Shown: one piece after another, positions 222 through 27,490 of the stretch | Layout: every line of letters begins with the position of its first letter | Numbering within the stretch: the first letter of the stretch is position 1 | Virus record (IMG/VR): IMGVR_UViG_3300042430_000348 | Span: 1-28,247 of that record | Source of the DNA: a virus | Lineage: Duplodnaviria > Caudoviricetes | Length of the DNA: 28,247 nt | Direction: 5' to 3' (one strand) | Made by a program: the position numbers and the translations under genes | The notes under the pieces: model-generated | Databases searched by the model: none | What the model was told of the DNA's origin: nothing | The model's input: the letters and a program-made list of their open reading frames with translations, nothing else

Positions 222-359
222 ATGTTAACATTAAACGAAGAACAAGTAAAGCAATTAGAAGCAATCTTAAGTGAGTTACCGATGAAGTTCGGAGTTCCTA
301 TTTTGAATATCTTAAACGAAGCGAGTAAACCTGCTGAAAACACGGATGAAGCAAACTGA
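222..359 (+). CDS. Small hypothetical protein (45 aa)
   Basis: Hand-translated MLTLNEEQVKQLEAILSELPMKFGVPILNILNEASKPAENTDEAN*; fills the gap between neighbours; below the ORF-track cutoff. Confidence 0.7.
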   Translation: MLTLNEEQVKQLEAILSELPMKFGVPILNILNEASKPAENTDEAN

Positions 360-1902: not shown

Positions 1903-4175
1903 TGAATAGAAAGGTACAAGTATACATCGAAGGACAAAGACTCGAACTATTCAACGATGAGCAGATTCAGGTAAGTTCAACGCAACAAAACGTAGCAGAC
2001 ATTTCAAAGACTTACACGGACTTCTCGCAGAGTTTTACTATTCCTGCTTCGCCATACAACAACGCTATCTTACAACACTTTTATCAGAGTGATGTAGATT
2101 CGACTATTGATCACAACATCCGTAGAAATGCTTTTATCGAGATAGACTTGACATTCTTTAGACGTGGTAAGATTCAGATTGATAAAGCACAACTAAAAAA
2201 CGGAGCTGCAGAAAGCTACACACTTAGTTTCTTTGGTGAAGGCAAAACGTTACTAGATTACTTTGGTGAAGACTTGTTATCTAACTTAGATTACACACCT
2301 GTGAATCACCTTTACAATGGAACGGAAGTCAAGAACAGAATTACGGACGGAACGAATGCTTACAATGTTAAATATCCTTTAATCAGTTCAAAAAGGATTT
2401 GGACTTGGACAGGTCAAACACCTACGACAATTACTCCAAGTTGGTTAACGATACCCACTGCGTCTGTAGATGACATACAAAAAAACGCAGGACACATTCA
2501 CTACAATGAGTTGTTTCCTGCAGTAAGAGTTAAAAACATCTTTAATCAAATCGCATCGAAATACGGAGTTACCTTTAATGGAAACTTTTTAAATGATGAG
2601 AGATTTACTAAGCTATTCTTGTGGTACAAAAACAAGAACGAGTATTACTTTTATTCAGAACCTCAACCGATTGACTTTACAAGTTTATCTACATCAGGAA
2701 ACGAAGCGAGTAATGCTTTTAATTTAGCTAATAATTCTATTCGTGTTCAGTTCCAAGCAGGATTATTTAATGGATTACACACGATTACAATTGACGTAAA
2801 TTCAATCTCAGCAACCACAGGAGCAATCATAGATGTTTACCAAAATGGGAACTTATACCAAACGATTCCATTTAGTACAGCAGGTACATTACCAAGCATA
2901 ACAATACAGAATGTTTCAGGATTAGATGATACCTATACTTTCAAAGTAAAGACACATACTGCAGTAACCGTAAACGTAGACGTCACTTATAAAATAGATG
3001 CGGTTCTTGTTATTTTAGGATTTGTAAATATCGCAACTTGTAATGCAACTTGTGCAAATAACGTAATGGTTATAAACACGGACTTAGCAGCACTTGCTCC
3101 TGTGATGAAAGTAAGCGACTTTTTTAGTGGTATATGTAAGATTTTTAATCTAACGTGTTATGCAACTTCTTCTAACACTTATCAGTTAGAGCCTTTGGAC
3201 GATTGGTACTCACAAGGTGCGATTGTAGACATTTCAAGATTCACAGACGTGGATAGTATTGACGTAGATAAGATGAAGCTCTACAAGAAGATAACGATGA
3301 AATATCAAAACTCTGAATCCTTCTTAAACAAGCAATTTAGTCAACTATTTATGCGTGAGTACGGAGATACTTCTTATCAGTATTCTTACGATGGAGACGA
3401 GTTTACTTTGGATGTACCTTTTGAGAATTTGTTACAGACAAAATTCACAGGAACTAACTTACAAGTAGGTTACTCACTTAATAACGAGTTTGCTCCGTAT
3501 ATTCCTAAGCCGATTCTACTTTATCAATACGACAATAAAGACGTTGACTTTCACTTTAACAACGGAAGCACGACAACTAACATCACAAACTACACGCCAT
3601 TCGGACAAGACCTTTACACGAACTTAACTGACTACACGTTAAACTTTGCTCCTGACATTTCCACGATGCTGAATGTTCCAGTGCAACAAACTTTATTCGG
3701 AACATACTACTTTTCTTACCTGTATAATCTTTACAATTTAAAGCAGAGATTGATCAGCGTGAAAACGATTCTACCTATCGGACTATTGACAGGGCTTCGT
3801 TTAAACGACAGATTGGTGATCAGAGATAAACGCTACATCATTAACTCGATGCAGTCTAATCTAACAACAGGCGAAGTAAACTTCCAATTGATTCTGGACT
3901 TTAGACCGATGGTAAATGCAACACAGATACCAAACGTAGGTATTGCAGGTGGTAACGTTTTAGTGCCAATTGACTTTGTAAACGATACTTACTCAGCTTT
4001 AATGACTTGCACAGATACAGATGTTACAATCACACCTAGTGAGATATTTGCACCTCAATTTGTAACAGTTACAATTCCTGCAGGAGCATCAGGCACGGTG
4101 TACGATTTAAACGTTAGATATGTTTTGAACTCAGGAGTTACAGAAACACGAACAATAAACATAATTCAAAGATGA
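1902..4175 (+). CDS. Large tail tip/hub structural protein
   Basis: 757 aa; N-terminus 'SQSFTIPASPYNNAIL' typical of Bacteroidota siphophage tail proteins; directly upstream of the tape measure gene. Confidence 0.6.
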   Translation: MNRKVQVYIEGQRLELFNDEQIQVSSTQQNVADISKTYTDFSQSFTIPASPYNNAILQHFYQSDVDSTIDHNIRRNAFIEIDLTFFRRGKIQIDKAQLKNGAAESYTLSFFGEGKTLLDYFGEDLLSNLDYTPVNHLYNGTEVKNRITDGTNAYNVKYPLISSKRIWTWTGQTPTTITPSWLTIPTASVDDIQKNAGHIHYNELFPAVRVKNIFNQIASKYGVTFNGNFLNDERFTKLFLWYKNKNEYYFYSEPQPIDFTSLSTSGNEASNAFNLANNSIRVQFQAGLFNGLHTITIDVNSISATTGAIIDVYQNGNLYQTIPFSTAGTLPSITIQNVSGLDDTYTFKVKTHTAVTVNVDVTYKIDAVLVILGFVNIATCNATCANNVMVINTDLAALAPVMKVSDFFSGICKIFNLTCYATSSNTYQLEPLDDWYSQGAIVDISRFTDVDSIDVDKMKLYKKITMKYQNSESFLNKQFSQLFMREYGDTSYQYSYDGDEFTLDVPFENLLQTKFTGTNLQVGYSLNNEFAPYIPKPILLYQYDNKDVDFHFNNGSTTTNITNYTPFGQDLYTNLTDYTLNFAPDISTMLNVPVQQTLFGTYYFSYLYNLYNLKQRLISVKTILPIGLLTGLRLNDRLVIRDKRYIINSMQSNLTTGEVNFQLILDFRPMVNATQIPNVGIAGGNVLVPIDFVNDTYSALMTCTDTDVTITPSEIFAPQFVTVTIPAGASGTVYDLNVRYVLNSGVTETRTINIIQR

Positions 4176-4327
4176 TAAAGAACATAATCGCAATGCTTAC
4201 TATAGATAACTTCTACGGAATATCAGAGAACATAGACATCGCAAAAGGAAAGTACGCTTACACGACATCCTTTAGAAAAATGACACGTCAAGAAAGAAGA
4301 AAACACGCACTTAAAAAAACTAACTGA
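4172..4327 (+). CDS. Small hypothetical protein (51 aa)
   Basis: MIKNIIAMLTIDNFYGISENIDIAKGKY...KKTN*; ATGA overlap upstream and TGATG overlap downstream. Confidence 0.7.
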   Translation: MIKNIIAMLTIDNFYGISENIDIAKGKYAYTTSFRKMTRQERRKHALKKTN

Positions 4328-6201
4328 TGGCTGAAAAGAAAGTAATAGAATTAGACTTACAAACAAACTTAGGTAGTCTTAAAAGTCAATTAAAACAAGC
4401 ACAAGCAGAAGTTCAAACTTTATCCGATAAGTTTGGTGCAACATCCCAAGCAGCAGCAGAAGCAGCTAAGAAAGCAGCAGATTTAAAAGATAGAATCCAA
4501 GATGCAAAAGCGTTAACCGATGCCTTTAATCCTGACGCTAAATTCACTTCTCTTACACGTTCTATTGGTGGAGCATTAGATGGATTCCAAGCGTTTGAAG
4601 GTGCATTAGGTTTAATTGGAGTTGAATCAGAAGACCTACAAAAAACGTTGTTGAAAGTTCAATCAGCAATGGCATTTTCTCAAGGTATTCAAGGAGCATT
4701 AGAAGCAAAGGATTCATTTATTCAATTAGGTGCAGTTGTTAAAAATACATTTAGTGCAATGACTACTGCATCTAAAGCATTTTTAGTAGGTGGAATAGGA
4801 TTAATTATTGCAGCAGTTGGAATACTGGTTGCAAATTATGACGAATGGTTCGGAGTATCTAAAGACGTTGCAGAGCAACAAAAAGTAATCGCAGAACAAG
4901 CAAAAGAACAACGTCAAAATATTGCTAAGGAATCAGGTGAGTTTGCAACTTTAATATCTAGGCTTAAAAACACTAACGAAGGAAGTAAAGAACGTGCAGA
5001 CTTAATTAAAAAGATTAACGGACAATACGGAACTACTTTAAAAAACATTAAAGACGAAACTAAATTCCAAGAATCATTAAACAAAGAATTAGCGTCTTAC
5101 TTAGAATACCAAAAAGCAAAATATCAATTACAAAAAAACGAAGAGTTAATTGTTAAGAATCTTGAAAAACAAGATGAAATACAATCAAAAATAACTAAAG
5201 CTCAAAAAGATTTACCTGCATTAATTGAAGCACAGAAAAAAGCTCAAAAGGGTTTAAATGAAACTAATGCACAGGATACTAATATGGTTGCATTTTATGC
5301 TGAAAAAGTTAGGGAAGCAAAAGCAGCAGTAGCAGCTAAAAATAAAGAAATTAAACTTGAACAGGATGAATTAATTAAAGCAGAAAAACGATTCAATGCT
5401 TATGGTTCAGCTGCTAATAACGCAGCAAACAACGTAGACAAACTTACTAATAGCGGAACTAAATATGTTGAGCAAACCACAGACAAAGTAGATAAGGTAG
5501 AAGAAAACAACGACAAAGAATTTGAAAGCTATGATGCATTAGAATATAAAAAAGCTCAGCTATTAAAGCATTCAGAACTTACTTTACAAGGACACGTTAA
5601 TGAAACTGTAAGAATACAAAAAGAAGCAGCTGAATACGAATTACTAATATTACAAGGTAAAGCAACGAAAGCTGCTCAAATAGATGAAGCGGCACATTCT
5701 AAAAAAGTAGAATTAGCAAAAGCAGGATTAAGTGCTATTGCACAAATAACAGAACTATTCGGAAAGAAAAGCGAGAAAGCAGCAAAACAAGCATTTAAGA
5801 TACAAAAAGCTGCAAATATTGCATCAGCGTTAGTAACTACTTACCAAAGTGCAACTGCGGCTTACGCATCACAATTCACGCCATTACCTGACCCAAGTTC
5901 GCCTGTACGTGGAGCAATCGTAGCAGGAATTGCAATTGCATCAGGTTTAGCAAACGTAGCTAAAATAACTCAACAAAAATTTGAAGGTGGAACTCCTCCT
6001 GGCAATAGTCCTCCTCCTAGTGATGCAGGTGGCGGTGGCACTGTTATATCTCCAAACTTTAACGTAGTTGGAAACTCAGGTTTAAATCAACTCAGTCAAC
6101 TACAACAAAAACCAACAAAGGCTTATGTGGTTTCTGGAGATATGACAACTGCCCAAGCACTAGATCGCAACAGGATTGAAAATGCAACATTAGTACAATA
6201 A
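4327..6201 (+). CDS. Tail tape measure protein
   Basis: 624 aa, Ala/Lys/Gln-rich helical coiled-coil with hydrophobic Gly/Ala stretches (GIGLIIAAVGILV; GAIVAGIAIASGLANV). Confidence 0.8.
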   Translation: MAEKKVIELDLQTNLGSLKSQLKQAQAEVQTLSDKFGATSQAAAEAAKKAADLKDRIQDAKALTDAFNPDAKFTSLTRSIGGALDGFQAFEGALGLIGVESEDLQKTLLKVQSAMAFSQGIQGALEAKDSFIQLGAVVKNTFSAMTTASKAFLVGGIGLIIAAVGILVANYDEWFGVSKDVAEQQKVIAEQAKEQRQNIAKESGEFATLISRLKNTNEGSKERADLIKKINGQYGTTLKNIKDETKFQESLNKELASYLEYQKAKYQLQKNEELIVKNLEKQDEIQSKITKAQKDLPALIEAQKKAQKGLNETNAQDTNMVAFYAEKVREAKAAVAAKNKEIKLEQDELIKAEKRFNAYGSAANNAANNVDKLTNSGTKYVEQTTDKVDKVEENNDKEFESYDALEYKKAQLLKHSELTLQGHVNETVRIQKEAAEYELLILQGKATKAAQIDEAAHSKKVELAKAGLSAIAQITELFGKKSEKAAKQAFKIQKAANIASALVTTYQSATAAYASQFTPLPDPSSPVRGAIVAGIAIASGLANVAKITQQKFEGGTPPGNSPPPSDAGGGGTVISPNFNVVGNSGLNQLSQLQQKPTKAYVVSGDMTTAQALDRNRIENATLVQ

Positions 6202-6212
6202 TTAAGTTTATA
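6183..6212 (+). promoter_or_regulatory. Putative phage late promoter TGCAACA-N15-AGTTTATA (copy 1)
   Basis: Same two boxes and spacing at 6183, 7763, 10442 and 27628, each just upstream of a structural gene start. Confidence 0.75.
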
Positions 6213-6216
6213 AAAT

Positions 6217-6807
6217 ATGAAAATTGTAGAATTAGTAATTGACGAAAAGGACTCACTAAGCGGAATTGACGCAGTTTCTGTAGTACATTCACCTGCTATT
6301 GAAGAGAACTTTATCGCACTAGCAAAACACGAAATAGAACTCAAAGAAGTAGACGCTGAGAAAAAGATTATTATGGGAGCTGCATTAGTTCCTAACAAGC
6401 AAATCTACCGAGTTAATCCTAAGACAAAAGAAGAATACTACATTTACTTTTCAGAGGACACAGTTCGCCAAGCATCAGAGTTATTCTTAATGAACTCAAA
6501 CCAAAACAACGCTACATACGAACACGACAAGAAGTTAAAAGGAATGTCGGTTGTAGAAAGTTGGATAATTGACGATAGTAAATCGGATAAATCCCGATTT
6601 TATGGCTTTGATTTGCCAAAAGGAACTTGGATGATATCAATGAAGGTTAACAACGAGGAAGTTTGGAACGATGTCAAAGAAGGTAAAGTAAAAGGGTTCT
6701 CAATCGAAGGTTACTTTGCTGACAAGTTAGAAATGTCTCAAATGTCAGAGGAAGATTTATTACTAGAACAAATCAAACAAATAATTATACAAGATGAAAA
6801 CAACTAA
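6217..6807 (+). CDS. Prohead serine protease, XkdF-like
   Basis: Motifs 'GAALVPNK', 'TYEH', 'VESWI', 'PKGTW' and 'KGFSIEG'; upstream of scaffold and capsid. Confidence 0.8.
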   Translation: MKIVELVIDEKDSLSGIDAVSVVHSPAIEENFIALAKHEIELKEVDAEKKIIMGAALVPNKQIYRVNPKTKEEYYIYFSEDTVRQASELFLMNSNQNNATYEHDKKLKGMSVVESWIIDDSKSDKSRFYGFDLPKGTWMISMKVNNEEVWNDVKEGKVKGFSIEGYFADKLEMSQMSEEDLLLEQIKQIIIQDENN

Positions 6808-7165
6808 AGAATTAATTATTGCAGACATCACTGCAAAGGTAGAAGCAAAATTAGCAAGTCAAAAAGTAGAACTTGCTATGAAACAAATTGGTGATTTTCA
6901 AAAAGAATCTGATGCACTTTATAAAGAAATGACTTCTAAGGGAGAACAATACAAAAAAGAATATTATAGTAAAACGGCGGCATTAGAAAAACCATTTAAT
7001 CAATTACGTGCTGAACTATATAATACATCTCAAGACTTTTTAAACAAAACAAAAGATTTAGGATTAGACGGAAAATCACTTCCTCCATATAAACAAATGG
7101 AAAAGTTAATTTCTGATATGGATAAAAGAAGCGAGTATTTTGTTAAAGAATATGTTAAACAATAA
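6794..7165 (+). CDS. Hypothetical helical protein, candidate capsid-internal/cargo protein
   Basis: 123 aa; leader motif KLASQKVELA shared with the 7807 ORF and the protease N-terminus. Confidence 0.55.
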   Translation: MKTTKELIIADITAKVEAKLASQKVELAMKQIGDFQKESDALYKEMTSKGEQYKKEYYSKTAALEKPFNQLRAELYNTSQDFLNKTKDLGLDGKSLPPYKQMEKLISDMDKRSEYFVKEYVKQ

Positions 7166-7170
7166 ATAAG

Positions 7171-7368
7171 ATGGGAAAAACTAAAACACCAAGTTATTCA
7201 AGTCCAAAAGGAGGACGCAGAGGATGTCTATGTGAAAACGGAACATACTCAACTAAATGTTGCGATGGAAGTTTACAAGCACAAGGCATAGGAGTGACAC
7301 AAGGCATTGATTCAGTTACGATAACTGAGAATGCAGGAGTAAGAACTACAGTCCGTCAGAACGGATAA
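7171..7368 (+). CDS. Small Cys-rich hypothetical protein
   Basis: 65 aa with CLC...CC cluster (possible metal binding); in the head operon. Confidence 0.7.
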   Translation: MGKTKTPSYSSPKGGRRGCLCENGTYSTKCCDGSLQAQGIGVTQGIDSVTITENAGVRTTVRQNG

Positions 7369-7429
7369 AAACTTTTCTACATTTATTATATGTAAGTGCC
7401 TTTGCATACTTGATATGTAGGTGCACTCT

Positions 7430-7465
7430 AAAAAAGAAAGGGGATGCTTACTGCTCCCCTTTTTC
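7430..7465. terminator. Bidirectional intrinsic terminator
   Basis: AAAGGGGA-tgc-ttact-gc-TCCCCTTT hairpin with an A-run before and a T-run after, between convergent genes. Confidence 0.75.
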
Positions 7466-7732
7466 GTATTTAATAAAATAATACTTCTGACTATTGCAAG
7501 TATTTTCAAAACCACCTGAATCTATATAAATATCATCATTTTTAGCTAATTCATATCCTGCATTTACACCTGCATCGTGAGCTTCGATTATTTGTTTTTT
7601 TTCCATTTCTTTGGCTTTCCCAATACAATCAGTTAATGAATTTAGCATTTGACTAAGTGATATATTACCTTTTGCTTTTTCAATTTCCAATCGCATTGCT
7701 TGTTCTGCATACCATTCCACTGCTGTTTTCAT
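7448..7732 (-). CDS. Moron-like hypothetical protein, 'TAVE...KEMEK.QI...YY' family (paralog 1)
   Basis: Only credible minus-strand gene; has its own promoter and terminator; clearly similar to 17044..17301. Confidence 0.8.
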   Translation of the reverse strand: MKTAVEWYAEQAMRLEIEKAKGNISLSQMLNSLTDCIGKAKEMEKKQIIEAHDAGVNAGYELAKNDDIYIDSGGFENTCNSQKYYFIKYEKGEQ

Positions 7733-7748
7733 AGTTTTTAATTTTTGT

Positions 7749-7756
7749 CAAATATA
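7749..7756 (-). promoter_or_regulatory. Bacteroidota sigma-A type -7 box (TATATTTG)
   Basis: CAAATATA on + strand, 16 nt upstream of the minus-strand ATG at 7732. Confidence 0.7.
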
Positions 7757-7762
7757 TAAAAA

Positions 7763-7792
7763 TGCAACAGATAAAACAAAATATAGTTTATA
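7763..7792 (+). promoter_or_regulatory. Putative phage late promoter (copy 2)
   Basis: TGCAACA-gataaaacaaaatat-AGTTTATA. Confidence 0.75.
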
Positions 7793-7806
7793 TAAAAAAG
7801 ACAAAG

Positions 7807-8163
7807 ATGGGATTAAATGAAGTATTTAAAAAAGTAGCAAGTATCAATGAAGTTACTGAGTTAGCAAGCCACGAAGTACAATTAGGTGCTATTGACGATT
7901 TGCAAGTTAAATATAAAAATATTGCAGCAAAAGCACCAAAAATTAAAGACCAAGTAATTAGATTGTCTAATGAATTAGCAGTTGTTTCGTCAGAACTTAA
8001 AAATTTATCTACTGATTTTAAAAAACTACAAGCAATGGCTAAAGAATTAGGGGCTATGGATGTTGAGAAAACTGCAATAACATTAGCACAACTTACAGCA
8101 ACATTTAGTTCTGATTGGGGAAAAGCCGCAACAAATATTTCTACATCAGCAAAAACAATTTAA
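7807..8163 (+). CDS. Hypothetical helical protein, candidate capsid-internal/cargo protein
   Basis: Start moved to ATG 7807 because 7762 lies in the promoter; leader motif ELASHEVQLG. Confidence 0.6.
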   Translation: MGLNEVFKKVASINEVTELASHEVQLGAIDDLQVKYKNIAAKAPKIKDQVIRLSNELAVVSSELKNLSTDFKKLQAMAKELGAMDVEKTAITLAQLTATFSSDWGKAATNISTSAKTI

Positions 8164-8179
8164 TAAATAAAAACGACAA

Positions 8180-8764
8180 ATGAAAAATAGCACAATTAAC
8201 AAAATCAAATCACTTTTAGGAATGGAAGTGAAATTAGAGCAAATGATGTTAATCGATGGAACTACAATCCTAGAAGCAGACGCATTTGAAATGGACAACG
8301 AAGTATTTATCGTTACTCCAGACGAGCAAATGATTCCTTTACCAATTGGTGAATACGAATTAGAGAACGGAATGATTCTAGTAGTTGCAGTAGAAGGAAT
8401 TATTGCTGAGATTAAAGAAGCAGTAGTTGAGGAAGTTGCTCCTGAAGTAGAAGCTCCTGAGGTAGAGGTAGAAGTTGAAGCGGAAGCTGCAGCACCACAA
8501 GCAAAGAAAACTATCGAATCTGTAGTTAAAGAAACATTCTTTTCAGAAATCGAAGCACTTAAAAACGAAAACATTGAATTGAAAGCGAAATTGGAAATGC
8601 TTTCTAAAGTTGACGAAGTTACAGAAGAAGTAACCGAACTTTCAGAAGAGCCAAAACCAATCAGTTTTAATCCTGAAAACACGAATGTAGTAGAGCCTTT
8701 CCGTTTTGAGAAAAACAGAAGTCGTTCAACTATCGATTCAATCTTTGAAAAATTAAACAAATAA
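8180..8764 (+). CDS. Capsid scaffolding protein
   Basis: Very acidic 194 aa protein with coiled-coil C-terminal half, immediately upstream of the major capsid gene. Confidence 0.7.
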   Translation: MKNSTINKIKSLLGMEVKLEQMMLIDGTTILEADAFEMDNEVFIVTPDEQMIPLPIGEYELENGMILVVAVEGIIAEIKEAVVEEVAPEVEAPEVEVEVEAEAAAPQAKKTIESVVKETFFSEIEALKNENIELKAKLEMLSKVDEVTEEVTELSEEPKPISFNPENTNVVEPFRFEKNRSRSTIDSIFEKLNK

Positions 8765-8790
8765 TATTAACTAACAAACATTTTTAAAAA

Positions 8791-9747
8791 ATGGCAACTA
8801 CAACATCAATTACTACAACTTACGCTGGTGAGTTTGCAGGTAAGTACATCGCAGCAGCTTTATTGTCTGCACCAACATTGGACAAAGGAGGGATCACTAT
8901 CGTTCCTAACGTAAAGTTCAAACAAGTGATCAAAAGAGTAGCAACTGACGATATCGTTAAAAATGCTACTTGTGATTTTGACGCTACATCTACAATTACA
9001 TTAACTGAGAAAATTCTTCAACCTGAGGAGTTCCAAGTTAACTTACAATTGTGTAAAAAAGATTTCGTTTCTGATTGGGAAGCAATTTCTATGGGTTACT
9101 CAGCATTCGAAGTAATGCCGAAAAACTTTACAGACTTCTTATTGGCTCACGCTGCTGAGAAAGTTGCTGCTGCAATGGAAACATCTATCTGGACAGGAGT
9201 TAACGCAACTGCAGGTCAATTCGCAGGTTTGATGACACAACTTACTACTGATGCTGCTTTACCTGCTGCACAAGAAATCGCTGCAGTTGGTGGTGGTGTT
9301 AATGCTTCTAACGTTATTGCTGAGTTAGGTAAAATCGTTGATGCTTGTCCTGCTGCTATCTACGGAAAAGAAGATTTAAGCATCTATGTTTCAAATAACA
9401 TTTACCGTGCTTATGTACGTGCTTTGGGTGGATTCGCTGCATCTGGAGTAGGTGCTAACGGATATGACAACAAAGGAACAAACCAAACATTGAATGACTT
9501 GTACTTTGACGGAGTTCGTATTTTCTTAGCTAACGGATTAGCTTCTAACACAGCTTTACTTGCTGAGAAATCTAACTTGTACTTTGCAACTGGATTGATG
9601 AACGATATGAACGAAGTGAAAGTTTTGGATATGGGTGACCTTGACGGATCGCAAAATGTTCGTGTAATTATGCGTTTCACTGCAGATGCTAAATACGGAT
9701 TTGCTTCTGACGTAGTTACTTACGGAATCACAAACGCTGCTAACTAA
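8791..9747 (+). CDS. Major capsid protein
   Basis: 318 aa, Ala/Gly-rich, strongly biased codon usage, follows protease and scaffold, ends at a terminator. Confidence 0.85.
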   Translation: MATTTSITTTYAGEFAGKYIAAALLSAPTLDKGGITIVPNVKFKQVIKRVATDDIVKNATCDFDATSTITLTEKILQPEEFQVNLQLCKKDFVSDWEAISMGYSAFEVMPKNFTDFLLAHAAEKVAAAMETSIWTGVNATAGQFAGLMTQLTTDAALPAAQEIAAVGGGVNASNVIAELGKIVDACPAAIYGKEDLSIYVSNNIYRAYVRALGGFAASGVGANGYDNKGTNQTLNDLYFDGVRIFLANGLASNTALLAEKSNLYFATGLMNDMNEVKVLDMGDLDGSQNVRVIMRFTADAKYGFASDVVTYGITNAAN

Positions 9748-9766
9748 TATTAACAGACAATAATTG

Positions 9767-9796
9767 AAAGGGGAGGTAAAGTGCCTTCCCTTTTTT
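9767..9796 (+). terminator. Intrinsic terminator
   Basis: AAGGGGAGGT...GCCTTCCCTT hairpin plus T-run after the capsid gene. Confidence 0.8.
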
Positions 9797-9818
9797 ATTT
9801 ACTCTAAAAAAACAAAAT

Positions 9819-10388
9819 ATGTGCGAAATAACAACAGGTAGACTAGAGGTCTGCAAAGATGTAGTTGGTGGAATTGACGCTATCTACTTCATTAATTACG
9901 GAGATTACAACGCAGCAACGGATGTAGTTTATACTGCTTCTACAGATACGATTGATACTATTGCTAACGTAACATCTCTTTACAAATACCAACTTAAAGG
10001 AACAAACACATTTGACCAAGTTATCACAACTTCACGTGAGAACGGAACATCATTTGTTGAGCAAACTTTATCAGTAGTTTTGAAAAAACAAGATGCTGCT
10101 ACACACAAGACAGTTAAATTGCTTTCTTACGGACGCCCTAACGTAGTGATCAAAACACGTAACAATCAATTCTTCCTTGCAGGTTTGGAACACGGAATGG
10201 AGTTAACAACTGCTAACGTGTCTAACGGTACTGCGATGGGTGATCTAGTTGGTTACACTTTGACGTTTGTAGGTACTGAGAAAATCTTAGCTAACCTTTT
10301 GGACGCAAATACTGAAACAGGTGCTACAGGTCTTGTAGGAAATGCAACGGCAGTATTCGGAGCGACTACAACAATCGTTACTACTTAA
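9819..10388 (+). CDS. Major tail tube protein (putative)
   Basis: 189 aa Thr-rich; 'C...GR...C...GGI' N-terminus and 'GYTLTF' C-terminal strand; flanked by terminators. Confidence 0.65.
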   Translation: MCEITTGRLEVCKDVVGGIDAIYFINYGDYNAATDVVYTASTDTIDTIANVTSLYKYQLKGTNTFDQVITTSRENGTSFVEQTLSVVLKKQDAATHKTVKLLSYGRPNVVIKTRNNQFFLAGLEHGMELTTANVSNGTAMGDLVGYTLTFVGTEKILANLLDANTETGATGLVGNATAVFGATTTIVTT

Positions 10389-10410
10389 TTCTTTTTTAAT
10401 AGCTTAATTG

Positions 10411-10438
10411 AAGGGGTGGCTTAGGTTACCCCTTTTTT
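10411..10438 (+). terminator. Intrinsic terminator
   Basis: AAGGGGTGGC-ttag-GTTACCCCTT plus T-run. Confidence 0.8.
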
Positions 10439-10441
10439 ATT

Positions 10442-10471
10442 TGCAACAAAACGGAAAGATTTAAGTTTATA
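10442..10471 (+). promoter_or_regulatory. Putative phage late promoter (copy 3)
   Basis: TGCAACA-aaacggaaagattta-AGTTTATA directly after a terminator and 4 nt before ATG 10476. Confidence 0.75.
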
Positions 10472-10475
10472 AAGT

Positions 10476-10808
10476 ATGATAGTATTAACGCCTTCTACAT
10501 CAGCTCAGACTTTTTCGTTTATTCCCAGATTTGAGAATTACACAACGATGGCAATTACTGACGAAGAAACAAATGTAACTACAACAGTTGCAATCACAAG
10601 TTCAACTCAGGGTGGCTATGTAAACACGATCACTGCAACTTTTGCTTTAAAGAATGATCACACTTACACACTTTTACTATCAAACGGAACAACCATTTGT
10701 CACAAGGATAAGATCTTTTGTACAAATCAATCAATCGCAACATTCTCCGTAAACAACGGACAATATACTTCTAATACTACCACAAACACTTACATAGTTT
10801 ATGAGTGA
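10476..10808 (+). CDS. Structural protein (possible head-closure protein)
   Basis: 110 aa Thr-rich beta protein directly upstream of the portal gene. Confidence 0.45.
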   Translation: MIVLTPSTSAQTFSFIPRFENYTTMAITDEETNVTTTVAITSSTQGGYVNTITATFALKNDHTYTLLLSNGTTICHKDKIFCTNQSIATFSVNNGQYTSNTTTNTYIVYE

Positions 10809-12585
10809 TAATCTACACATACTAAGCCTAAGTGCTTACACAACGCCTACAATTCAAGAATCCAAACGTGATAACTGGGTTGAATATGGAGAAGACAATA
10901 ATTACTATTCTTTCTTGATAGATAGATACACGAACTCAACTACAAATTCGGCTATTATAAACAACATAGCACGACTTGTATACGGAAAAGGACTAAGTGC
11001 ATTAGACGCTAACAGAAAACCTGCTGAGTACGCTCAAATGATGGCTTTATTCAGTAAGGATGACATCCGCAAAATTATTGTAGATCGTAAAATGTTAGGA
11101 CAATATGCTTGGCAAGTTCATTACAACGATAAACACGACAAGATCCTTAAAGCGTTTCATATTCCAGTAAACTTATTACGTGCAGAGAAATGCAACAAAG
11201 ACGGAGAAATCGAAGCGTATTACTACTCAGATGATTGGACAGATGTAAAGAAATATCCACCTTTACGCATACCTGCTTTCGGATTCTCAAATGAGAAAAT
11301 AGAAATCGTTTACTTCAAGCCTTATTCAGTTGGAATGAAGTACTATAGTTACGTTGACTATCAAGGATCTTTACCTTACGCACTTTTAGAGGAGGAGATT
11401 GCAGACTACTTGATCAACGAAGTACAAAACGGATTCTCTGGTACTAAGGTAGTAAACTTTAACAATGGAGTACCTACCGAAGAGCAACAATCAATGATCA
11501 CTTCCAAGGTGATGAACAAACTTACAGGTTCACGAGGTCAAAAAGTAATCGTTGCATTTAACGACAACCAAGAATCCAAAACTACGGTAGACGATATTCC
11601 TTTAAACGATGCTCCAGAACATTACACTTACTTATCAGAGGAGTGTTTACGTAAGATTATGCTAGGTCACAATGTTACTTCTCCTTTGTTATTTGGAGTT
11701 GCTAGTTCAAATGGATTCAGTGCAAACGCAGATGAGCTTAAAAACTCTGCAATCTTATTTGACAATATGGTTATCAGACCATTCCAAGAAGAAATATTAG
11801 AGTCATTTGACAAGATTCTAGCATATAACGGAATCAGTTTAAAATTATTCTTTAGAACATTACAACCTTTAGAGTTCACAGACCTTGAAAACACGCAAAC
11901 TGCTGAAGAAGTAGTTGAAGAAACAGGAGCAGACGCAACTCAGTTAAGCAAAATGGACAACGAAATAGCAGATGAGTTAATTAATTGTGGTGAGGTTGTA
12001 GATGAAAATTGGGTATTAATTGACGAATTTGAAGTTGACTACGACCAAGAGGATGAAATCGACTTAGAGATTGCAAACGCAAACAAATCTAAACAATCTT
12101 TATTGTCTAAAATATACAATTTTGTAAGTACAGGTACTGCTAATCCTAGAGCTAAATCAGAACAAGACGCAGTAGTTGACGGATTCAAGTTCATTACAAG
12201 ATATCGTTACGAAGGTGGCGTAAAAGACAACACACGACCATTTTGCAGGAAGATGGTTGCTGCAAACAAAGTATATCGCAAAGAAGACATCGTTAGAATG
12301 GGTTCTCAGGTAGTCAACGCAGGTTGGGGTGCTAGAGGAGCTGACACATACGACATCTTCCTTTACAAAGGTGGAGGTGCTTGCCATCACAAATGGATGC
12401 GTCAAACATTTGTTGCGTTTGAACAAGGACGTGGAATAGACCCGTTAAGTCCTAATGCAAAAACAATCAGTACAAACAAAGCAGAGAAAGCAGGTTACCG
12501 AGTTAGAAATCCACAACAAGTTGCAATGCGTCCTGTAGATATGCCAAATCAAGGCTTTTTACCAACCAATAAACGATTTAACTAA
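10801..12585 (+). CDS. Portal protein with a C-terminal extra (MuF/head-morphogenesis-like) domain
   Basis: N-terminal ~365 aa portal-like ('WVEYGEDNNY', 'IMLGHNVTSPLLFG', 'VIRPFQEEI'); acidic linker; C-terminal domain with RPFC and GGGACHH motifs. Confidence 0.75.
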   Translation: MSDNLHILSLSAYTTPTIQESKRDNWVEYGEDNNYYSFLIDRYTNSTTNSAIINNIARLVYGKGLSALDANRKPAEYAQMMALFSKDDIRKIIVDRKMLGQYAWQVHYNDKHDKILKAFHIPVNLLRAEKCNKDGEIEAYYYSDDWTDVKKYPPLRIPAFGFSNEKIEIVYFKPYSVGMKYYSYVDYQGSLPYALLEEEIADYLINEVQNGFSGTKVVNFNNGVPTEEQQSMITSKVMNKLTGSRGQKVIVAFNDNQESKTTVDDIPLNDAPEHYTYLSEECLRKIMLGHNVTSPLLFGVASSNGFSANADELKNSAILFDNMVIRPFQEEILESFDKILAYNGISLKLFFRTLQPLEFTDLENTQTAEEVVEETGADATQLSKMDNEIADELINCGEVVDENWVLIDEFEVDYDQEDEIDLEIANANKSKQSLLSKIYNFVSTGTANPRAKSEQDAVVDGFKFITRYRYEGGVKDNTRPFCRKMVAANKVYRKEDIVRMGSQVVNAGWGARGADTYDIFLYKGGGACHHKWMRQTFVAFEQGRGIDPLSPNAKTISTNKAEKAGYRVRNPQQVAMRPVDMPNQGFLPTNKRFN

Positions 12586-13085
12586 TGGCAGAAGCACTAT
12601 TTATCACACGCGATGACATCGTTCGTTACACGGCTTTAAATGGCAACGTAGACACGGACAAGTTCATTCAGTTTATCAAGATCGCTCAAGATATTCACAT
12701 CCAGAATTACTTAGGTACAAAGCTATTCCAAAAGTTACAAGCTGATGTTATCGCAGGAACTCTTGCAGGAAACTATCAAACGTTAGTTGTTACATACGTC
12801 AAGCCAATGTTGATCCATTGGGGAATGGTGGAATATCTTCCTTTCGCAGCTTACACAATTGCAAACAAAGGAGTTTACAAACATTCATCTGAGAACTCAG
12901 AAAACGTAGATAAAAACGAAGTAGACTATTTACTAGAAAAGGAAAGAAGTATTGCTCAGAACTACACACAGCGATTCATTGACTATATGGCATTTAACCA
13001 ACCTTTGTTTCCTGAGTATCGTTCAAACAAGAACAACGATGTATTCCCTGATTCAATGAACAATCATACAGGTTGGTATATATGA
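12585..13085 (+). CDS. Head-tail adaptor/connector (putative)
   Basis: 166 aa helical protein directly downstream of the portal (TAATG overlap). Confidence 0.55.
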   Translation: MAEALFITRDDIVRYTALNGNVDTDKFIQFIKIAQDIHIQNYLGTKLFQKLQADVIAGTLAGNYQTLVVTYVKPMLIHWGMVEYLPFAAYTIANKGVYKHSSENSENVDKNEVDYLLEKERSIAQNYTQRFIDYMAFNQPLFPEYRSNKNNDVFPDSMNNHTGWYI

Positions 13086-13186
13086 GAAAACGGATTAAGC
13101 TAGGTAATTACAAACCTAAAGAAACTAATGTAGAGAAGCTTCGTGTTTTTCTAGCTAAACTAAATAAAACAACAGTGCAAAAATGA
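13082..13186 (+). CDS. Small basic hypothetical protein (34 aa)
   Basis: MRKRIKLGNYKPKETNVEKLRVFLAKLNKTTVQK*; ATGA overlaps on both sides. Confidence 0.65.
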   Translation: MRKRIKLGNYKPKETNVEKLRVFLAKLNKTTVQK

Positions 13187-13608
13187 AAACCAATTTAACC
13201 TTATTAGCATTCTCCATTTGCACAATTTTAGCACCTGTTAAACCTTTAGTAATTATTGCAATTTTATCTATTATTTTAGATACGTGTTTTGGTATTTGGC
13301 GTTCAGTTAAAAAAGGAGGATGGAAGTCCATTCGTTCCCGTAGACTATCTCACACCATTTCTAAGACACTTTTGTACTCAGGTGCTATCGTTTTTGTGTT
13401 CCTGTTAGAAAAGTACGTTGTAGCCGATATTCTTGCACACTTCATTGCTATTGAATTACTAATGACAAAGGCGTTTACTTTCTTCTGCGTTTACACGGAG
13501 ATAAAAAGTATTAATGAAAGTTACTTCTCAGTTACAGGAGTTAATGTATGGGACAAGTTCAAGTCGTTCGCAAAAAGAAGTAAAGAAACCTTAGACGATT
13601 TAAAATGA
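13183..13608 (+). CDS. Holin (phage holin 4-like)
   Basis: Several hydrophobic segments, 'D..FGIW', 'I.SRRL', 'EIKSINE'; immediately upstream of the endolysin. Confidence 0.8.
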   Translation: MKTNLTLLAFSICTILAPVKPLVIIAILSIILDTCFGIWRSVKKGGWKSIRSRRLSHTISKTLLYSGAIVFVFLLEKYVVADILAHFIAIELLMTKAFTFFCVYTEIKSINESYFSVTGVNVWDKFKSFAKRSKETLDDLK

Positions 13609-14168
13609 CATTAATAGAAAAATACGTTAAGTTCACAAAGAAATGGGAAGGTGGACTATCCAGAGACAAATCAGATTCTGCATCTAGCTATCCGTGTCCA
13701 ACTGCTTACAAGGGAAAAACGGGATATCACACAAATGCAGGAATAACTTACAAAGCGTGGGTTTCGTTTTTTGGAACTGACAATGATGCACGTTTCTACT
13801 TAATGAACGCTGCTGATTGGTTTGCAATATTTAAAAAAGGCTACTGGGATGGCGTTAGAGGTGATGCTTATAATTCACAAAACATTGCAGTATTCGTTAC
13901 AGGGATGGCGTGGGGTTCAGGAGTTAAACAAGCGTCTAAATCTCTACAGGTGGCGATCAATCATTGTGGCTTACTTTGTACAGTAGACGGAATTATCGGA
14001 GTAAAAACGATTCTCCTAGCAAACTCAATCGAACCTAAAAAATTGTTTGATGCATTAACTGCTGAAAGAGAAAGATTCTTTTATGCAATTGGAGTAGGTA
14101 AAAACGCTAAATTCTTGACAGGATGGTTAAACAGACTAAACGATTATCGCTTTACATTTCGACCTTAA
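13605..14168 (+). CDS. Endolysin, glycoside hydrolase family 108-like
   Basis: N-terminal 'WEGG', 'TNAGIT', peptidoglycan-binding-type 'VDGIIG..T', C-terminal 'KFLTGWLNR'. Confidence 0.85.
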   Translation: MTLIEKYVKFTKKWEGGLSRDKSDSASSYPCPTAYKGKTGYHTNAGITYKAWVSFFGTDNDARFYLMNAADWFAIFKKGYWDGVRGDAYNSQNIAVFVTGMAWGSGVKQASKSLQVAINHCGLLCTVDGIIGVKTILLANSIEPKKLFDALTAERERFFYAIGVGKNAKFLTGWLNRLNDYRFTFRP

Positions 14169-14575
14169 TTATTTTAGGTTCGTGTTCTGCTAATTATCAC
14201 GTTCTACGTGCCATCAAAAAAGGCTACAGATGTGACGAAACTAGCGACACAATACAAGTTTCGACAATAGACTCAATTCCTTACGTTCTAAGAGATTCAA
14301 TTTATTGGGAGAAGGTAATTGTTCAGAAAGATACGATAGTTCGTTACAAGCGTTCCTACGTACCTCAAACGAGATTTCAGACACGTATTGAATACAAGTA
14401 CAAAACAAAATACATCAAAGCGGAAGCTCAAAAGGTCAAGTACCAAAATAAATACATCACAAAATACAAGACGCGTTGGCTGTTTGTTATCATTGCATTT
14501 ATTGTAGGATTCCTAGTTAGGTTAACCTTAAGCGAAACCTTCAGAAGCAGGATAAGACTTCTCACTAAACTTTAA
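14123..14575 (+). CDS. Lipoprotein, candidate spanin
   Basis: Signal peptide with lipobox LGSC and a C-terminal TM helix (WLFVIIAFIVGFLV); follows the endolysin. Confidence 0.6.
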   Translation: MVKQTKRLSLYISTLIILGSCSANYHVLRAIKKGYRCDETSDTIQVSTIDSIPYVLRDSIYWEKVIVQKDTIVRYKRSYVPQTRFQTRIEYKYKTKYIKAEAQKVKYQNKYITKYKTRWLFVIIAFIVGFLVRLTLSETFRSRIRLLTKL

Positions 14576-14577
14576 GT

Positions 14578-15615
14578 ATGAGCAAACAAAGTAGATTCAG
14601 ATTACAAGAAGACGAAATAGAAATATTAAACTCTTACAGAGCAATTAAATTAGAATCAAACGGACTTGGATTAGACGATAAAGATGTCAAACACGGATGG
14701 ATCAAAAACAAACACGCATCATTGTTCTTTAAAAATCCGAACTTTAAAGAAGCTGAGGAAGTAAATTACAAAGAGCTGCAGGAGTTGATCTTGCAAGACA
14801 TCAAAGATTTCAAACCTGAATATCCTACAATCTTTAGGAATCCATCAACAGACGGACACTTATTAGTAGTTGATCCTGCTGACATCCACATCGGAAAGTT
14901 ATGTGAAGCATTTGAAACAGGAGAAGACTACAACAATCAGATCGCAGTTAAACGTGTGAAAGAAGGAGTTCAAGGAATCTTAGACAAGAGTTCTGGATTT
15001 AATATTGACAAAATACTTTTTATCGGAGGAAACGACATCCTTCACATTGACACACCTAAACGAACTACTACAGGAGGAACACCACAGGACACGGATGGAA
15101 TGTGGTACTCTAATTTTTTAATCGCAAAACAATTGTATGTTGATATCTTGGAAACTCTGCTATCTGTCGCTGATGTGCATTTTACCTTTAATCCATCTAA
15201 TCACGATTACACACACGGATTCTTCCTTGCGGATGTTATTCAGACGTGGTTTAGAAACTGTGATAATATTACTTTCGATTGTTCTATTGCTCATCGGAAG
15301 GGATTTCTATATGGCAAGAATCTAATCGGAACAACACACGGAGACGGAGCAAAACACGAACACTTACCTTTATTGATGGCAACCGAGTTTCCACACGAAT
15401 GGAGCTTAACTAAGCACAGGTACGTTTATACTCATCACGTTCACCACAAAACAAGTAAAGACTACATTGGAGTTACTGTTGAATCATTGCGTTCACCCTC
15501 AGGAACGGACTCTTGGCATCACAGAAATGGCTATCAACATTCCCCTCAGGCAGTCGAAGCATTTTTACATCACAAAGATTTCGGACAAGTTTGTAGAATA
15601 TCACATATCTTTTAG
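14578..15615 (+). CDS. Calcineurin-like metallophosphoesterase
   Basis: Motifs DIHIG, GGND..H, SNHD, HGD, HHVHH. Confidence 0.8.
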   Translation: MSKQSRFRLQEDEIEILNSYRAIKLESNGLGLDDKDVKHGWIKNKHASLFFKNPNFKEAEEVNYKELQELILQDIKDFKPEYPTIFRNPSTDGHLLVVDPADIHIGKLCEAFETGEDYNNQIAVKRVKEGVQGILDKSSGFNIDKILFIGGNDILHIDTPKRTTTGGTPQDTDGMWYSNFLIAKQLYVDILETLLSVADVHFTFNPSNHDYTHGFFLADVIQTWFRNCDNITFDCSIAHRKGFLYGKNLIGTTHGDGAKHEHLPLLMATEFPHEWSLTKHRYVYTHHVHHKTSKDYIGVTVESLRSPSGTDSWHHRNGYQHSPQAVEAFLHHKDFGQVCRISHIF

Positions 15616-15623
15616 TATATTTG
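15616..15623 (+). promoter_or_regulatory. Bacteroidota -7 box TATATTTG, candidate small-RNA promoter
   Basis: Matches TAnnTTTG; followed within about 55 nt by a terminator, with no ORF in between. Confidence 0.5.
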
Positions 15624-15648
15624 TCGCTCATAGTTTTTTGGTTAGGTT

Positions 15649-15678
15649 AGGGGGTGTCGAAAGGCATCCCTTTTTTTT
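15649..15678 (+). terminator. Intrinsic terminator ending the late/lysis region
   Basis: AGGGGGTGTC-GAAA-GGCATCCCTT plus T8. Confidence 0.85.
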
Positions 15679-15680
15679 AT

Positions 15681-16130
15681 GGTTATAACCTTATAATTCA
15701 CATCATTAATTCAAGGTATAACCTGATATTGTGTCGCATATTTAGCAGATATTTGCGACATTTCCGTCACAAATTTGTCTAGTTTATGTGACAAAAAACT
15801 GGACATTCTAGCGGACATTTACCCTTGTTCTGTTTATTTTATCGGACATTTACCCTTGTTCCGTTACAAGAATGTAACATATTTACCCTTGTTTTGTTAC
15901 AAACATTTGCCACTATTTCGATTTATTGGCATTTGTATAGTTGACTATAACCTTACTTTAATGTGATTTTGCACATTATTTTCCACTATAGTGGTCTTAT
16001 AAACGCCAAAAACATATTATAATGTTACTTATAAGTTACTTTTTATACGCTATCAGGTATAAATTAAGTATATTTCTTTACATTATATGTTTTTCCATAC
16101 ATCTCAAATGCCTGTAAAATCAAGGCCTTT
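15681..16130. repeat. Non-coding array of diverse palindromes and direct repeats
   Basis: About 12 adjacent inverted repeats plus CGGACATTTACCCTTGTTC twice (15812, 15843) and a third ATTTACCCTTGTT (15881). Confidence 0.8.
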
Positions 16131-16174: not shown

Positions 16175-16202
16175 ATTTATATATAAATAGTCTATATATT
16201 TG
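16175..16202 (+). promoter_or_regulatory. Early promoter (-7 box TATATTTG 16195-16202) with a 14-bp palindrome upstream
   Basis: ATTTATATATAAAT at 16175-16188; first early ORF starts at 16225. Confidence 0.7.
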
Positions 16203-24641: not shown

Positions 24642-25169
24642 ATGGAATTACTAACAGAGATTTGTAAGCATCACAATGAATGGCTAAAAATAGTCAAAAC
24701 ATTCGGCTGCGACTTTCCAGAGGATGTAGTTCAGGATGCTTACCTACGCATTCACAAGTATGGTAATGCAGAAAAGCTCATCATAAACGGAGAGATCAAT
24801 AAATTAATTATGTGGACAATACTTCGCAATGTATCACACGACACCAACAAAGCAAATAAAATCGGGTTTATATCTTTAGAGGATGTATGGAACATTGCTG
24901 ATTCAGAAAACAACGTATCAAAACATCAATCACTAAACAAAATAGATCTATTAATTGATAAGGAATCTAATACATGGCATCACTATGATAAGATGTTATT
25001 TGATTTGTACAGAAAAACGGAGCTATCAATGCGAGAAATAGCAGAAGCTACTGGAATACATTACACATCAATATTCCATACGTTAAAGAGATGTAAGAAA
25101 AGACTACAGGAATCAGTAGGAGAAGACTACCAAGATTACTTAAATAAAGATTTTGAACTAATAAAATAA
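24642..25169 (+). CDS. ECF-like RNA polymerase sigma factor
   Basis: Region 2 'EDVVQDAYLRI...WTILRN'; region 4 HTH 'LSMREIAEATGIHYTSIFHTLKR'. Confidence 0.8.
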   Translation: MELLTEICKHHNEWLKIVKTFGCDFPEDVVQDAYLRIHKYGNAEKLIINGEINKLIMWTILRNVSHDTNKANKIGFISLEDVWNIADSENNVSKHQSLNKIDLLIDKESNTWHHYDKMLFDLYRKTELSMREIAEATGIHYTSIFHTLKRCKKRLQESVGEDYQDYLNKDFELIK

Positions 25170-25724: not shown

Positions 25725-25924
25725 TGAAATACTATTTAGTTGATCACGGTAAGTATATGATCGAAGCTGCTAATATCTTAACAGACTTTTTAACATCACA
25801 AGGACATCACTATGTGGTTTACTTGACCAATGCTGATGGACTAATGTGCGTAGAAGAAATAGATGAAGATGAATTTTTAAATCACTTTAAAAAACGACCA
25901 AAACACGAAACCAATGAAAAATAA
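25724..25924 (+). CDS. Hypothetical protein
   Basis: 66 aa; TAATG overlap. Confidence 0.65.
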   Translation: MKYYLVDHGKYMIEAANILTDFLTSQGHHYVVYLTNADGLMCVEEIDEDEFLNHFKKRPKHETNEK

Positions 25925-26327
25925 AGTAGGAAGACCTAGAAACCTAGAATCACCTGAACAACTAAGTGAACTATTTGACAAATACAAAGCAGACGTAAAA
26001 GCCAATCCAAGAATAAAAAGCGTATTCGGAGGAAAGGAGTTTGAGGAGAGAGCTGAGCCATTAGAAAGACCTCTAACCCTAGAAGGCTTTGAATTGTTTT
26101 GCTACGATGAAGTTGGAGTTGTAGAACAATACTTTAAGAATACAGACAAAAGATACGAAGAATTTGTTCCCATCTGCTCGCGTATAAGAAAAGCAATACG
26201 ACAAGACCAAATCGAAGGAGGCATGGTAGGACAGTACAATCCGTCCATTACACAACGTCTGAACGGATTAACTGAAAAAGTTGAAAGCACGATTATAACA
26301 GAACAACCATTGTTCCCTGAGGAGTAA
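25914..26327 (+). CDS. terS: Terminase small subunit (P22 gp3-like)
   Basis: 'GRPR', 'RPLTLEGF', 'G.YNPSITQRLNGL'; directly upstream of the large subunit. Confidence 0.8.
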   Translation: MKNKVGRPRNLESPEQLSELFDKYKADVKANPRIKSVFGGKEFEERAEPLERPLTLEGFELFCYDEVGVVEQYFKNTDKRYEEFVPICSRIRKAIRQDQIEGGMVGQYNPSITQRLNGLTEKVESTIITEQPLFPEE

Positions 26328-26329
26328 GT

Positions 26330-27490
26330 ATGTTTAAAAGAACGACTGCAATAAACAAGATTCTTTCGTTAAAAAAACGGATTAAGATAATTCAAGGAGG
26401 AACCAGTGCGGGAAAGACATTTGGGATTTTGCCCGTGCTTATTGACAAGTGTGCTAAAGAGCCAAACCTAGAAGTTTCTGTAGTTGCAGAATCAATCCCT
26501 CACTTACGAAGAGGTGCGTTAAAAGACTTTATCAAAGTGATGAGGTGGACAGGACGCTACAATGACGATAGGTTTAATAAGACTCTCTTACGTTACGAGT
26601 TTGGTAATGGTAGTGTAATGGAGTTCTTCTCAGCAGATGACGCATCTAAGTTAAGAGGAGCAAGAAGAGATATCCTTTATATCAACGAATGTAATAACGT
26701 AAGCTTTGAAAGTTATAACGAATTATCAATAAGAACTAAGAGAGAAGTATTCTTAGACTTTAACCCTGCTAACGAGTTTTGGGTACATAAGGAACTCAAA
26801 GACGAACCTGACTCAGACTTTATAATCTTAACTTACAAGGACAATGAAGCATTAGACGAATCAATAGTAAGTCAGATAGAAAAGAATCGTGAGAAAGCAG
26901 CAACGTCATCTTACTGGGCGAATTGGTGGAGAGTTTACGGACTAGGACAGATAGGTAGTTTAGAAGGAGTAATCTTTAACAACTGGAAAACGATTGACAC
27001 GATACCAAGCGAAGCTAAGTTAATCGGAATAGGGCTTGACTTTGGATACACGAATGATCCTACTTCAGCAATAGAGATCTATAACTACAACGGACAAAGA
27101 ATCATAAACGAGATTTGTTACCGTACAGGAATGGTAAACTCAGATATTGCAAAGGTGCTACCGAATAGCGTTACTATTTACGCAGATAGCTCAGAGCCAA
27201 AATCAATCGAAGAGATTAGACGCTTCGGCAAGATGATTAAAGGCGTAACCAAAGGAGTTGATTCAATCAAGTTCGGAATCGATGTAATGCAAAGACAAGA
27301 TTACTTAGTTACCAGTTCCAGTACAAACCTAATCAAAGAGCTTAGAAGCTATTGTTGGAGCGTAAAGAAAGACGGAGAGAAAACAAACGTACCTATCGAC
27401 CATTACAATCACGCTATTGATGCATTGAGATATCACGAGATGGAAACACTAGGACTAAAAAAGAACTATGGACAATACAACATCAGATGA
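26330..27490 (+). CDS. terL: Terminase large subunit (PBSX/SPP1-like)
   Basis: Walker A 'QGGTSAGKT', Walker B 'YINE', 'DFNP', nuclease 'GLDFG', 'NHAIDALRY'. Confidence 0.95.
   Translation: MFKRTTAINKILSLKKRIKIIQGGTSAGKTFGILPVLIDKCAKEPNLEVSVVAESIPHLRRGALKDFIKVMRWTGRYNDDRFNKTLLRYEFGNGSVMEFFSADDASKLRGARRDILYINECNNVSFESYNELSIRTKREVFLDFNPANEFWVHKELKDEPDSDFIILTYKDNEALDESIVSQIEKNREKAATSSYWANWWRVYGLGQIGSLEGVIFNNWKTIDTIPSEAKLIGIGLDFGYTNDPTSAIEIYNYNGQRIINEICYRTGMVNSDIAKVLPNSVTIYADSSEPKSIEEIRRFGKMIKGVTKGVDSIKFGIDVMQRQDYLVTSSSTNLIKELRSYCWSVKKDGEKTNVPIDHYNHAIDALRYHEMETLGLKKNYGQYNIR

Follow-up and report, generated by a model that had tools for sequence, protein, structure and literature searches.

The window analysed here, the whole record of 28,247 bp, is that of a tailed phage with genes for a tape measure, a capsid protease, a portal, a holin, an endolysin, replication, Erf/NinG recombination and a terminase. 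The gene order is unusual (346-15615, 25914-27490), with tail genes, tape measure, protease, capsid, portal and lysis following one another and the terminase placed after the replication block, and an ECF-sigma-like gene is present at 24642-25169. Near-complete relatives measure 28.5-32 kb, and a tyrosine integrase, an HTH_3 protein and DUF6088 were found in none of the five studied, so that the phage is likely to be lytic. The best read sets for it are lake metagenomes; in run X1, possibly the source sample, four pieces with zero differences cover nearly the whole of the array that is the subject of this work, and a metagenome scan with the terminase gave further relatives only. Promoter type and operator matches point to Flavobacterium-type bacteria as the likely host.

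The array (15681-16130) is bounded on the left by an intrinsic terminator at the end of the late operon (15649..15680, plus strand), which is also found in relatives, and on the right by an octamer that precedes the first early gene at 16225 (16195..16202, plus strand), which no site overlaps and which we take to be a Bacteroidota-type promoter element. The first-pass annotation had claimed that palindromes are densely packed in this interval, and comparison with shuffled sequence confirms an excess. Inverted repeats with arms of at least 5 number 30, against 12.9 +/- 3.6 in 1000 dinucleotide shuffles of which none reached 30; with arms of at least 6 there are 12 against 3.6 (2 of 1000 shuffles reach this) and with arms of at least 7 there are 4 against 1.0 (27 of 1000). 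The three densest 450-bp stretches of the contig all fall within the array region (32, 28 and 25 inverted repeats, contig mean 9.5). The list of thirteen palindromes that accompanied the claim proved sound in its positions, twelve being exact and that at 15711 imperfect, but its parsing was off. The entries at 15681 and 15711 form a single pair of similar sites, those at 15863 and 15959 are probably junctions between the arms of adjoining sites, the palindromy at 15936 and 15983 is not retained in 10 relatives, and two sites, 15776-15805 and 16083-16102, had been missed.

In the genome collection the pattern of the site at 15732-15760 matches about 630 stretches, with Bacteroidota in 68 of 80 titles among the matches listed. 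A DUF6088 gene starts no more than 250 bp away in 73 of 120 loci, 40 of the 120 having only about 300 bp of flank, and in 53 of these 73 the distance is 18-20 bp. The ORFs that start within 60 bp of such a class-1 site encode DUF6088 in 39 of 46 cases, the gene that follows is AbiEii in 9 of 10 tested, and PADLOC called AbiEi for 4/4 antitoxins and AbiEii for 2/2 toxins. Host toxin-antitoxin operators of this kind thus lie over the promoter at a fixed distance from the first gene; the promoter octamer overlaps 55 of 61 host AbiE sites. It has been reported that AbiEi represses its own operon via inverted repeats in the promoter and that it bends DNA (PMC7319586). The class-1 host set was first obtained with a phage-derived query and was re-tested with 14 sites from the family search only, against which 15732 scores 33.8. 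An independent search in the genus of G001, the genome that holds locus L131 and is titled Flavobacterium, found AbiEii in 108 of 221 genomes.

The promoters of 90 AbiE operons found by family carry the same palindrome in four arm classes, together with a 30-bp form before antitoxins of 240 aa. Host sites of the 240-aa class lie 30-31 bp before the start codon in L413, L415, L417, L429 and L430, and host examples of arm class 3 are L345, L360, L372 and L420. Among 80 antitoxins, the residues at positions 33 and 40 covary with arm class. The adjusted mutual information is 0.62 and 0.69 against a median of 0.11, and the covariation is partly due to kinship, with 8 label changes on a quick tree. 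Several host loci show more complex arrangements. In L082, L088, L101, L133 and L134 a class-1 operator lies about 155-170 bp upstream of the DUF6088 gene, four of these genes having a proximal operator of a different class, and L161 has three AbiE sites of two classes within 300 bp; hosts may cross-wire their own AbiE operons. Clear palindromes also accompany the host AbiE families DUF6922, AbiEi_3 and a 194-aa DUF6088-like group (L378-L396, L343-L347 and L398-L404), of which only the 194-aa operator passes in a phage array (1 of 65).

Two further families of host operon were matched. The pair of sites at 15678-15726 keeps a spacing of 32-34 bp in 36 of 40 phage observations, and a phage-built model of this pair matches 20 of 150 genomes. 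Of the eight best loci examined, six immediately precede the gene of mobile mystery protein A, with that of the Fic-domain protein B coming next where the contig extends far enough. This host set was obtained through a phage-derived query; a profile rebuilt from the host promoters themselves, in which the period is 33 bp, ranks 15711 and 15678 first in the contig. The other family is headed by Y4mF-type HipB genes, which exceed the cut-off in 23 of 121 genomes. In 41 of 48 host operons, of three classes, the order is HTH, 110-aa HipA-N and kinase, which is the layout of hipBST, where HipB is reported to autoregulate and HipS to be the antitoxin (PMC8262856). The Hip host promoters contain 20-bp palindromes with a period of 39-41 bp in 67 of 67 cases, and the class-1 and class-2 HipB sites of phages are 40-41 bp apart in 22 of 28.

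Profiles built from Flavobacteriaceae and Bacteroidota promoters, 15 in number plus one more for mobile mystery, assign ten sites of eight classes, which cover 211 of the 425 bp of 15678-16102 and leave 214 outside assigned sites. All ten outscore everything elsewhere in the 28 kb contig; five host families have no passing site in the window and one is marginal. Two copies of the operator that hosts carry before the mobile mystery A (XRE) and B (Fic) genes are assigned, at 15678..15693 (score 16.5, best outside the array 10.4) and at 15711..15726 (17.3), 33 bp apart as in host promoters. These are followed by the DUF6088/AbiEi-AbiEii operator of arm class 1, that of the antitoxins of about 200 aa (15732..15760; 34.7 against -2.3 outside), by a degenerate DUF6088 operator of arm class 3 (15765..15793; 18.1 against 5.4), second-best for its profile after 15732 and overlapping the next site, and by the operator of the 240-aa DUF6088/AbiEi subfamily (15776..15805; 32.3 against 7.9). 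A DUF6088 operator of arm class 2 lies at 15873..15901 (25.6 against 4.2; host examples L355, L363 and L418). HipB class 4, the profile of which comes from 3 operons only, is represented by a degenerate site at 15949..15968 (11.3 against 6.3), with better copies in relatives, and by another at 16010..16029 (14.1 against 6.3) whose score is reached by 4 of 1000 shuffled arrays and which in the reverse test places L490, L498 and L499 first. A HipB (Y4mF) class-1 operator at 16043..16062 (20.6 against 7.3) is followed after 40 bp, as in hosts, by one of class 2 at 16083..16102 (14.4 against 6.4; 5 of 1000 shuffles). Four of the ten, at 15765, 15949, 16010 and 16083, fall short of the lowest score among the host sites of their own class, and with the same profiles HipB classes 3 and 5 have no passing site in the window.

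Between these sites are segments to which a host family could not be assigned. Two 30-bp direct repeats (15806..15868) matched nothing in hosts better than the control did; counted together with the spacer of the site that follows, they make three copies, 31 and 33 bp apart, that by eye look like a mobile mystery half-site. A symmetric 28-bp site at 15906..15933 is conserved in 19 of 73 family loci, and a model of 15904-15935 run on 150 genomes, with 48 candidates scored in each, pointed to no consistent host gene, the best match being coding. A block marked by its conservation, with a symmetric 20-bp frame at 15991, occupies 15981..16009. The symmetric 20-bp site at 16022..16041 has the shape of a HipB operator, and the nearest host class is HipB5, whose profile fails in the window; it may also resemble the boxes of controller proteins. 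A model of 15940-16045 gave mostly coding noise in 150 genomes, with one HipB4 promoter among 25 loci. SatD promoters (9 loci) did not account for 15806-15868, 15906-15933, 15981-16009 or 16022-16041, nor, among the matches listed, did 60 further XRE/HipA regions account for any of these four. Phased palindromes do occur upstream of SatD-family genes in hosts (L622-L625), with no match in the window, and most host RhuM genes (L535-L564) contain a variable palindrome within the coding sequence, some 185-220 nt from its start; these internal palindromes (29 of 30 loci) gave no window match above control. Several leads were dropped. A loose HipB-like pattern did no better than its control in 5 genomes, a tighter one matched 23 of 151 genomes with HipB promoters at only 2 of the 23 loci, and a plain count of palindromes fails to separate viral from host flanks (2.8 vs 2.7). 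A CRISPR mini-array or integron-like cassettes were also considered and rejected, there being only one degenerate repeat of 3 copies and no tyrosine integrase. The search of the region by blastn against 50,697 annotated phage records returned short chance matches only.

The phage copies control no toxin-antitoxin operon, as there is no cognate gene in the window, where tblastn with 20 host proteins gave no match, or in 5 relatives. DUF6088 was likewise found in none of the fetched flanks of 119 class-1 viral matches, on contigs of up to 133 kb. The class-1 pattern itself occurs in about 260 viral stretches against 5 for an arm-reversed control. Among 65 distinct family loci HipB1 sites are present in 30 where the flanks predict 0.5, HipB2 sites in 15 (0 predicted) and HipB4 sites in 10 (0.2), the two 240-aa profiles are found in 9 and 15 (0.2 expected), and four host operator families are found in none. 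In 8 of 9 classes the arms resemble one another more closely than the spacers do, and the array keeps the host site spacings of 33 and 40 bp. The promoter octamer, by contrast with the host AbiE sites, overlaps only 5 of 22 phage sites, which are related and so do not count as independent events, and none in the window's array. Of 80 viral class-1 sites that were classified, 25 belong to arrays of several sites, 40 are solitary and intergenic, and 15 fall within ORFs. Overlaps of a class-1 operator with a phage ORF (L222, L226, L232, L209, L221, L227, L210, L245 and others) number 19 in 11 protein clusters, among them lipoprotein-like and terminase-like proteins (labels by eye), and could be either embedded decoys or chance amplified by kinship.

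The locus was followed across relatives through the left-hand gene of the array, which recovered 80 viral loci with a gap behind it of 7 bp to more than 450 bp. At L001 the flanking protein is 99% identical and only 7 bp stand in place of the array, which is thus dispensable in some relatives. The 34 near-clade loci hold 26 site repertoires, some being without an array, in a single order in 258 of 264 site-pair observations, and array lengths take all three values modulo 3. Contigs of four lake runs omit blocks such as 15802-15899, 15760-16040 and 15939-16012, with ends near site ends (the sides are short, and related phages may be their source). Insertions were seen in the same place: L005:1231-1830 is a GIY-YIG/NUMOD3 homing endonuclease between the flanking gene and the array, and in L020, L024 and L026 there are insertions at or inside the array.

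Taken together, these sequence comparisons indicate that, independently of the purpose it serves, the array is very probably a collection of operators from host toxin-antitoxin systems. The first-pass annotation had proposed a collected panel of host protein sites that would be gained and lost as units and would serve several different proteins and not one phage repressor. Its core has stood, in that all ten sites match the promoters of host toxin-antitoxin operons and the repertoires vary among relatives as predicted; no site was traced to a recombinase or to a general regulator, which had also been suggested, and the proposal is partly supported. The operator region of a phage repressor was rejected as a candidate, the motif classes being eight and not one and HTH_3 and integrase being absent from 5/5 relatives.

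The presence of host operator copies, in subsets that differ between related phages, makes it rather probable that the array acts as a DNA decoy that titrates host toxin-antitoxin autorepressors during phage replication. Each palindrome would attract the protein that the first gene of the matching operon encodes, and the tens to hundreds of copies made by replication would out-compete the single host operator. The operon would then be derepressed and fresh antitoxin would keep the toxin neutralised, or the complex of repressor and toxin would be parked on phage DNA; abortive infection would thereby be blunted. Recombination between relatives would update the panel and, with one specificity class per site, the panel would set the host strains in which the phage finishes infection. 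Lactococcal AbiE is reported to act after phage DNA replication (PMC13064643), at a stage when phage DNA would outnumber the single host operator, and it is from this, together with the autorepression by AbiEi and its neutralisation of AbiEii, that titration is inferred. Several points count against a decoy. Some relatives do without the array, about half of it matches no host family and the scores of four sites are weak. AbiE of S. agalactiae is reported to have left E. coli unprotected from 32 coliphages (10.64898/2026.01.19.700257), stripping away the antitoxin might equally free the toxin, and derepression would fail if the phage shuts off host transcription. The anti-phage role of these Hip and Fic operons is putative.

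A different use of the same sites would be as a sensor in cis, in which host repressors that occupy the panel adjust the neighbouring early promoter through DNA loops or bends and early anti-defence genes respond to the toxin-antitoxin set of the cell. The array is always directly upstream of the early promoter in this phage family, the early genes are small unknowns and, as mentioned, AbiEi bends DNA (PMC7319586). The distances speak against such control: the nearest site ends 93 bp before the octamer and the farthest lies about 500 bp away, whereas host sites overlap theirs, and an array that ranges from 7 to more than 450 bp has no fixed phase. Moreover, 55 of the 80 viral class-1 sites are more than 300 bp from any other scored site and occur in many contexts, and we regard a sensor as unlikely. 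A decoy of opposite sign, by which antitoxins are drawn off or toxin is raised and host translation is slowed or competing phages are excluded, would leave the same sequence evidence as titration that protects the phage. Toxins of the AbiE and Hip type interfere with the charging or the use of tRNA, on which a small lytic phage depends, and a collection of eight classes fits evasion better. The location of AbiEi could matter for such an effect since it is reported to neutralise AbiEii by direct binding (10.64898/2026.01.19.700257), but overall we consider this quite improbable.

It might also be that the array has no function and consists of pieces of host promoters that were acquired through Erf/RecE-like recombination and left in one tolerant gap. 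Recombination genes are indeed present, several relatives do without an array and some sites are degenerate; yet the sites, of eight classes, are cut back to the bare operator, overlap and keep a single order (258/264), their arms are better conserved than their spacers, the promoter element is mostly gone and the excess over the control pattern is about 50-fold, so that debris has a very small chance of being the explanation. Dense, overlapping sites for several dimeric proteins would likewise be expected if bound host proteins shield or organise phage DNA as it enters or replicates and leave host operons unaffected. The assigned binders would make a poor coat, toxin-antitoxin regulators being of low abundance and patchy in distribution (AbiEii in 108/221 genomes, Y4mF over the cut-off in 23/121), and we give coating a chance just as small. 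As for a functional product, either a structured RNA or a short protein, the plus strand has a better fold than shuffled sequence (z -5.5) and G-T mismatches in the arms outnumber A-C (65 to 43). Palindromes fold by construction, however, and mismatches of other kinds number 163; the array comes after a terminator and is without a promoter octamer, Rfam returned 6 matches to the region that were all far under cut-off, array lengths take all three values modulo 3, and the array's two ORFs have no Pfam or PHROG match. A structured non-coding RNA was accordingly rejected, and a product of either kind appears the least probable of these explanations.

Titration of host repressors, the use that we favour, has its nearest published case in aba, which acts against BstA in prophage BTP1 and as multi-copy DNA suppresses BstA in trans (PMC8585504). 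As described there, aba is, like the array, a short phage DNA element; it counters abortive infection, its effect is confined to one variant of the protein, and in high copy number it also acts in trans. The array appears to share this variant specificity, with separate sites for four AbiE and three HipB classes. It differs in that aba is a single element of 63 bp in the bstA locus that the phage itself carries, where it provides self-immunity (PMC8585504), whereas the present phage has neither integrase nor cognate gene and its array holds at least 10 copies of autoregulatory operators from foreign operons of three families. The operators of AbiEi/Rv2827c (PMC7319586) and of hipBA/hipBST (PMC8262856) are described as inverted repeats over their own promoter to which the first gene product binds; those of the array are detached from gene and promoter and carried on a phage. 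Synthetic decoy sites for transcription factors (PMC7826281) also titrate by means of extra copies of a site, but are engineered, single-target and unrelated to phage defence.

The counters to toxin-antitoxin defence that are known from phages consist of protein or of RNA. The pseudo-ToxI RNA repeats of phage TE are an example of the latter. Orphan DarG, ICP1 Gp145, TifA and T7 Gp4.5 are described as proteins that act on the toxin or on a protease, Gp4.5 being proposed to act by preserving an antitoxin (PMC13728456). The array is unlike either kind in being double-stranded DNA that would be aimed at repressor function and at many targets. The literature searched, mostly the main text of open papers and including 2026 reviews, yielded no phage array of toxin-antitoxin operators and no published operator for DUF6088 or mobile mystery proteins. 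There is perhaps an even chance that Bacteroidota phages run a DNA-only library that can be updated, a cassette-like array with one operator per specificity class that blocks abortive infection by titration.

If the array does act in this way, a non-coding panel of 430 bp against eight repressor classes would represent a new and very cheap form of counter-defence that is invisible to gene-centred screens. An arms race between decoys and hosts would explain the many specificity classes of antitoxin operators. The array would already point to the mobile mystery A/B and Y4mF-HipST operons as acting against phages, and reading the remaining sites would name further anti-phage host systems. Because the phage names its targets, two poorly studied families included, the question of which chromosomal toxin-antitoxin systems fight phages becomes directly testable. 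Predicted operators are in addition supplied for DUF6088 and for mobile mystery protein A.

A candidate small RNA of 50-60 nt was noted immediately to the left of the array, at 15616-15680. It comprises a promoter octamer, a segment with complementarity to the contexts of start codons and, after this, the terminator, and has a weak match to the Rfam family FopS (21 bits, cut-off 56). The seed target word is found downstream in 33 of 64 loci, an uncontrolled count, and in 60 of 75 family loci the octamer lies no more than 12 nt from the upstream stop codon.
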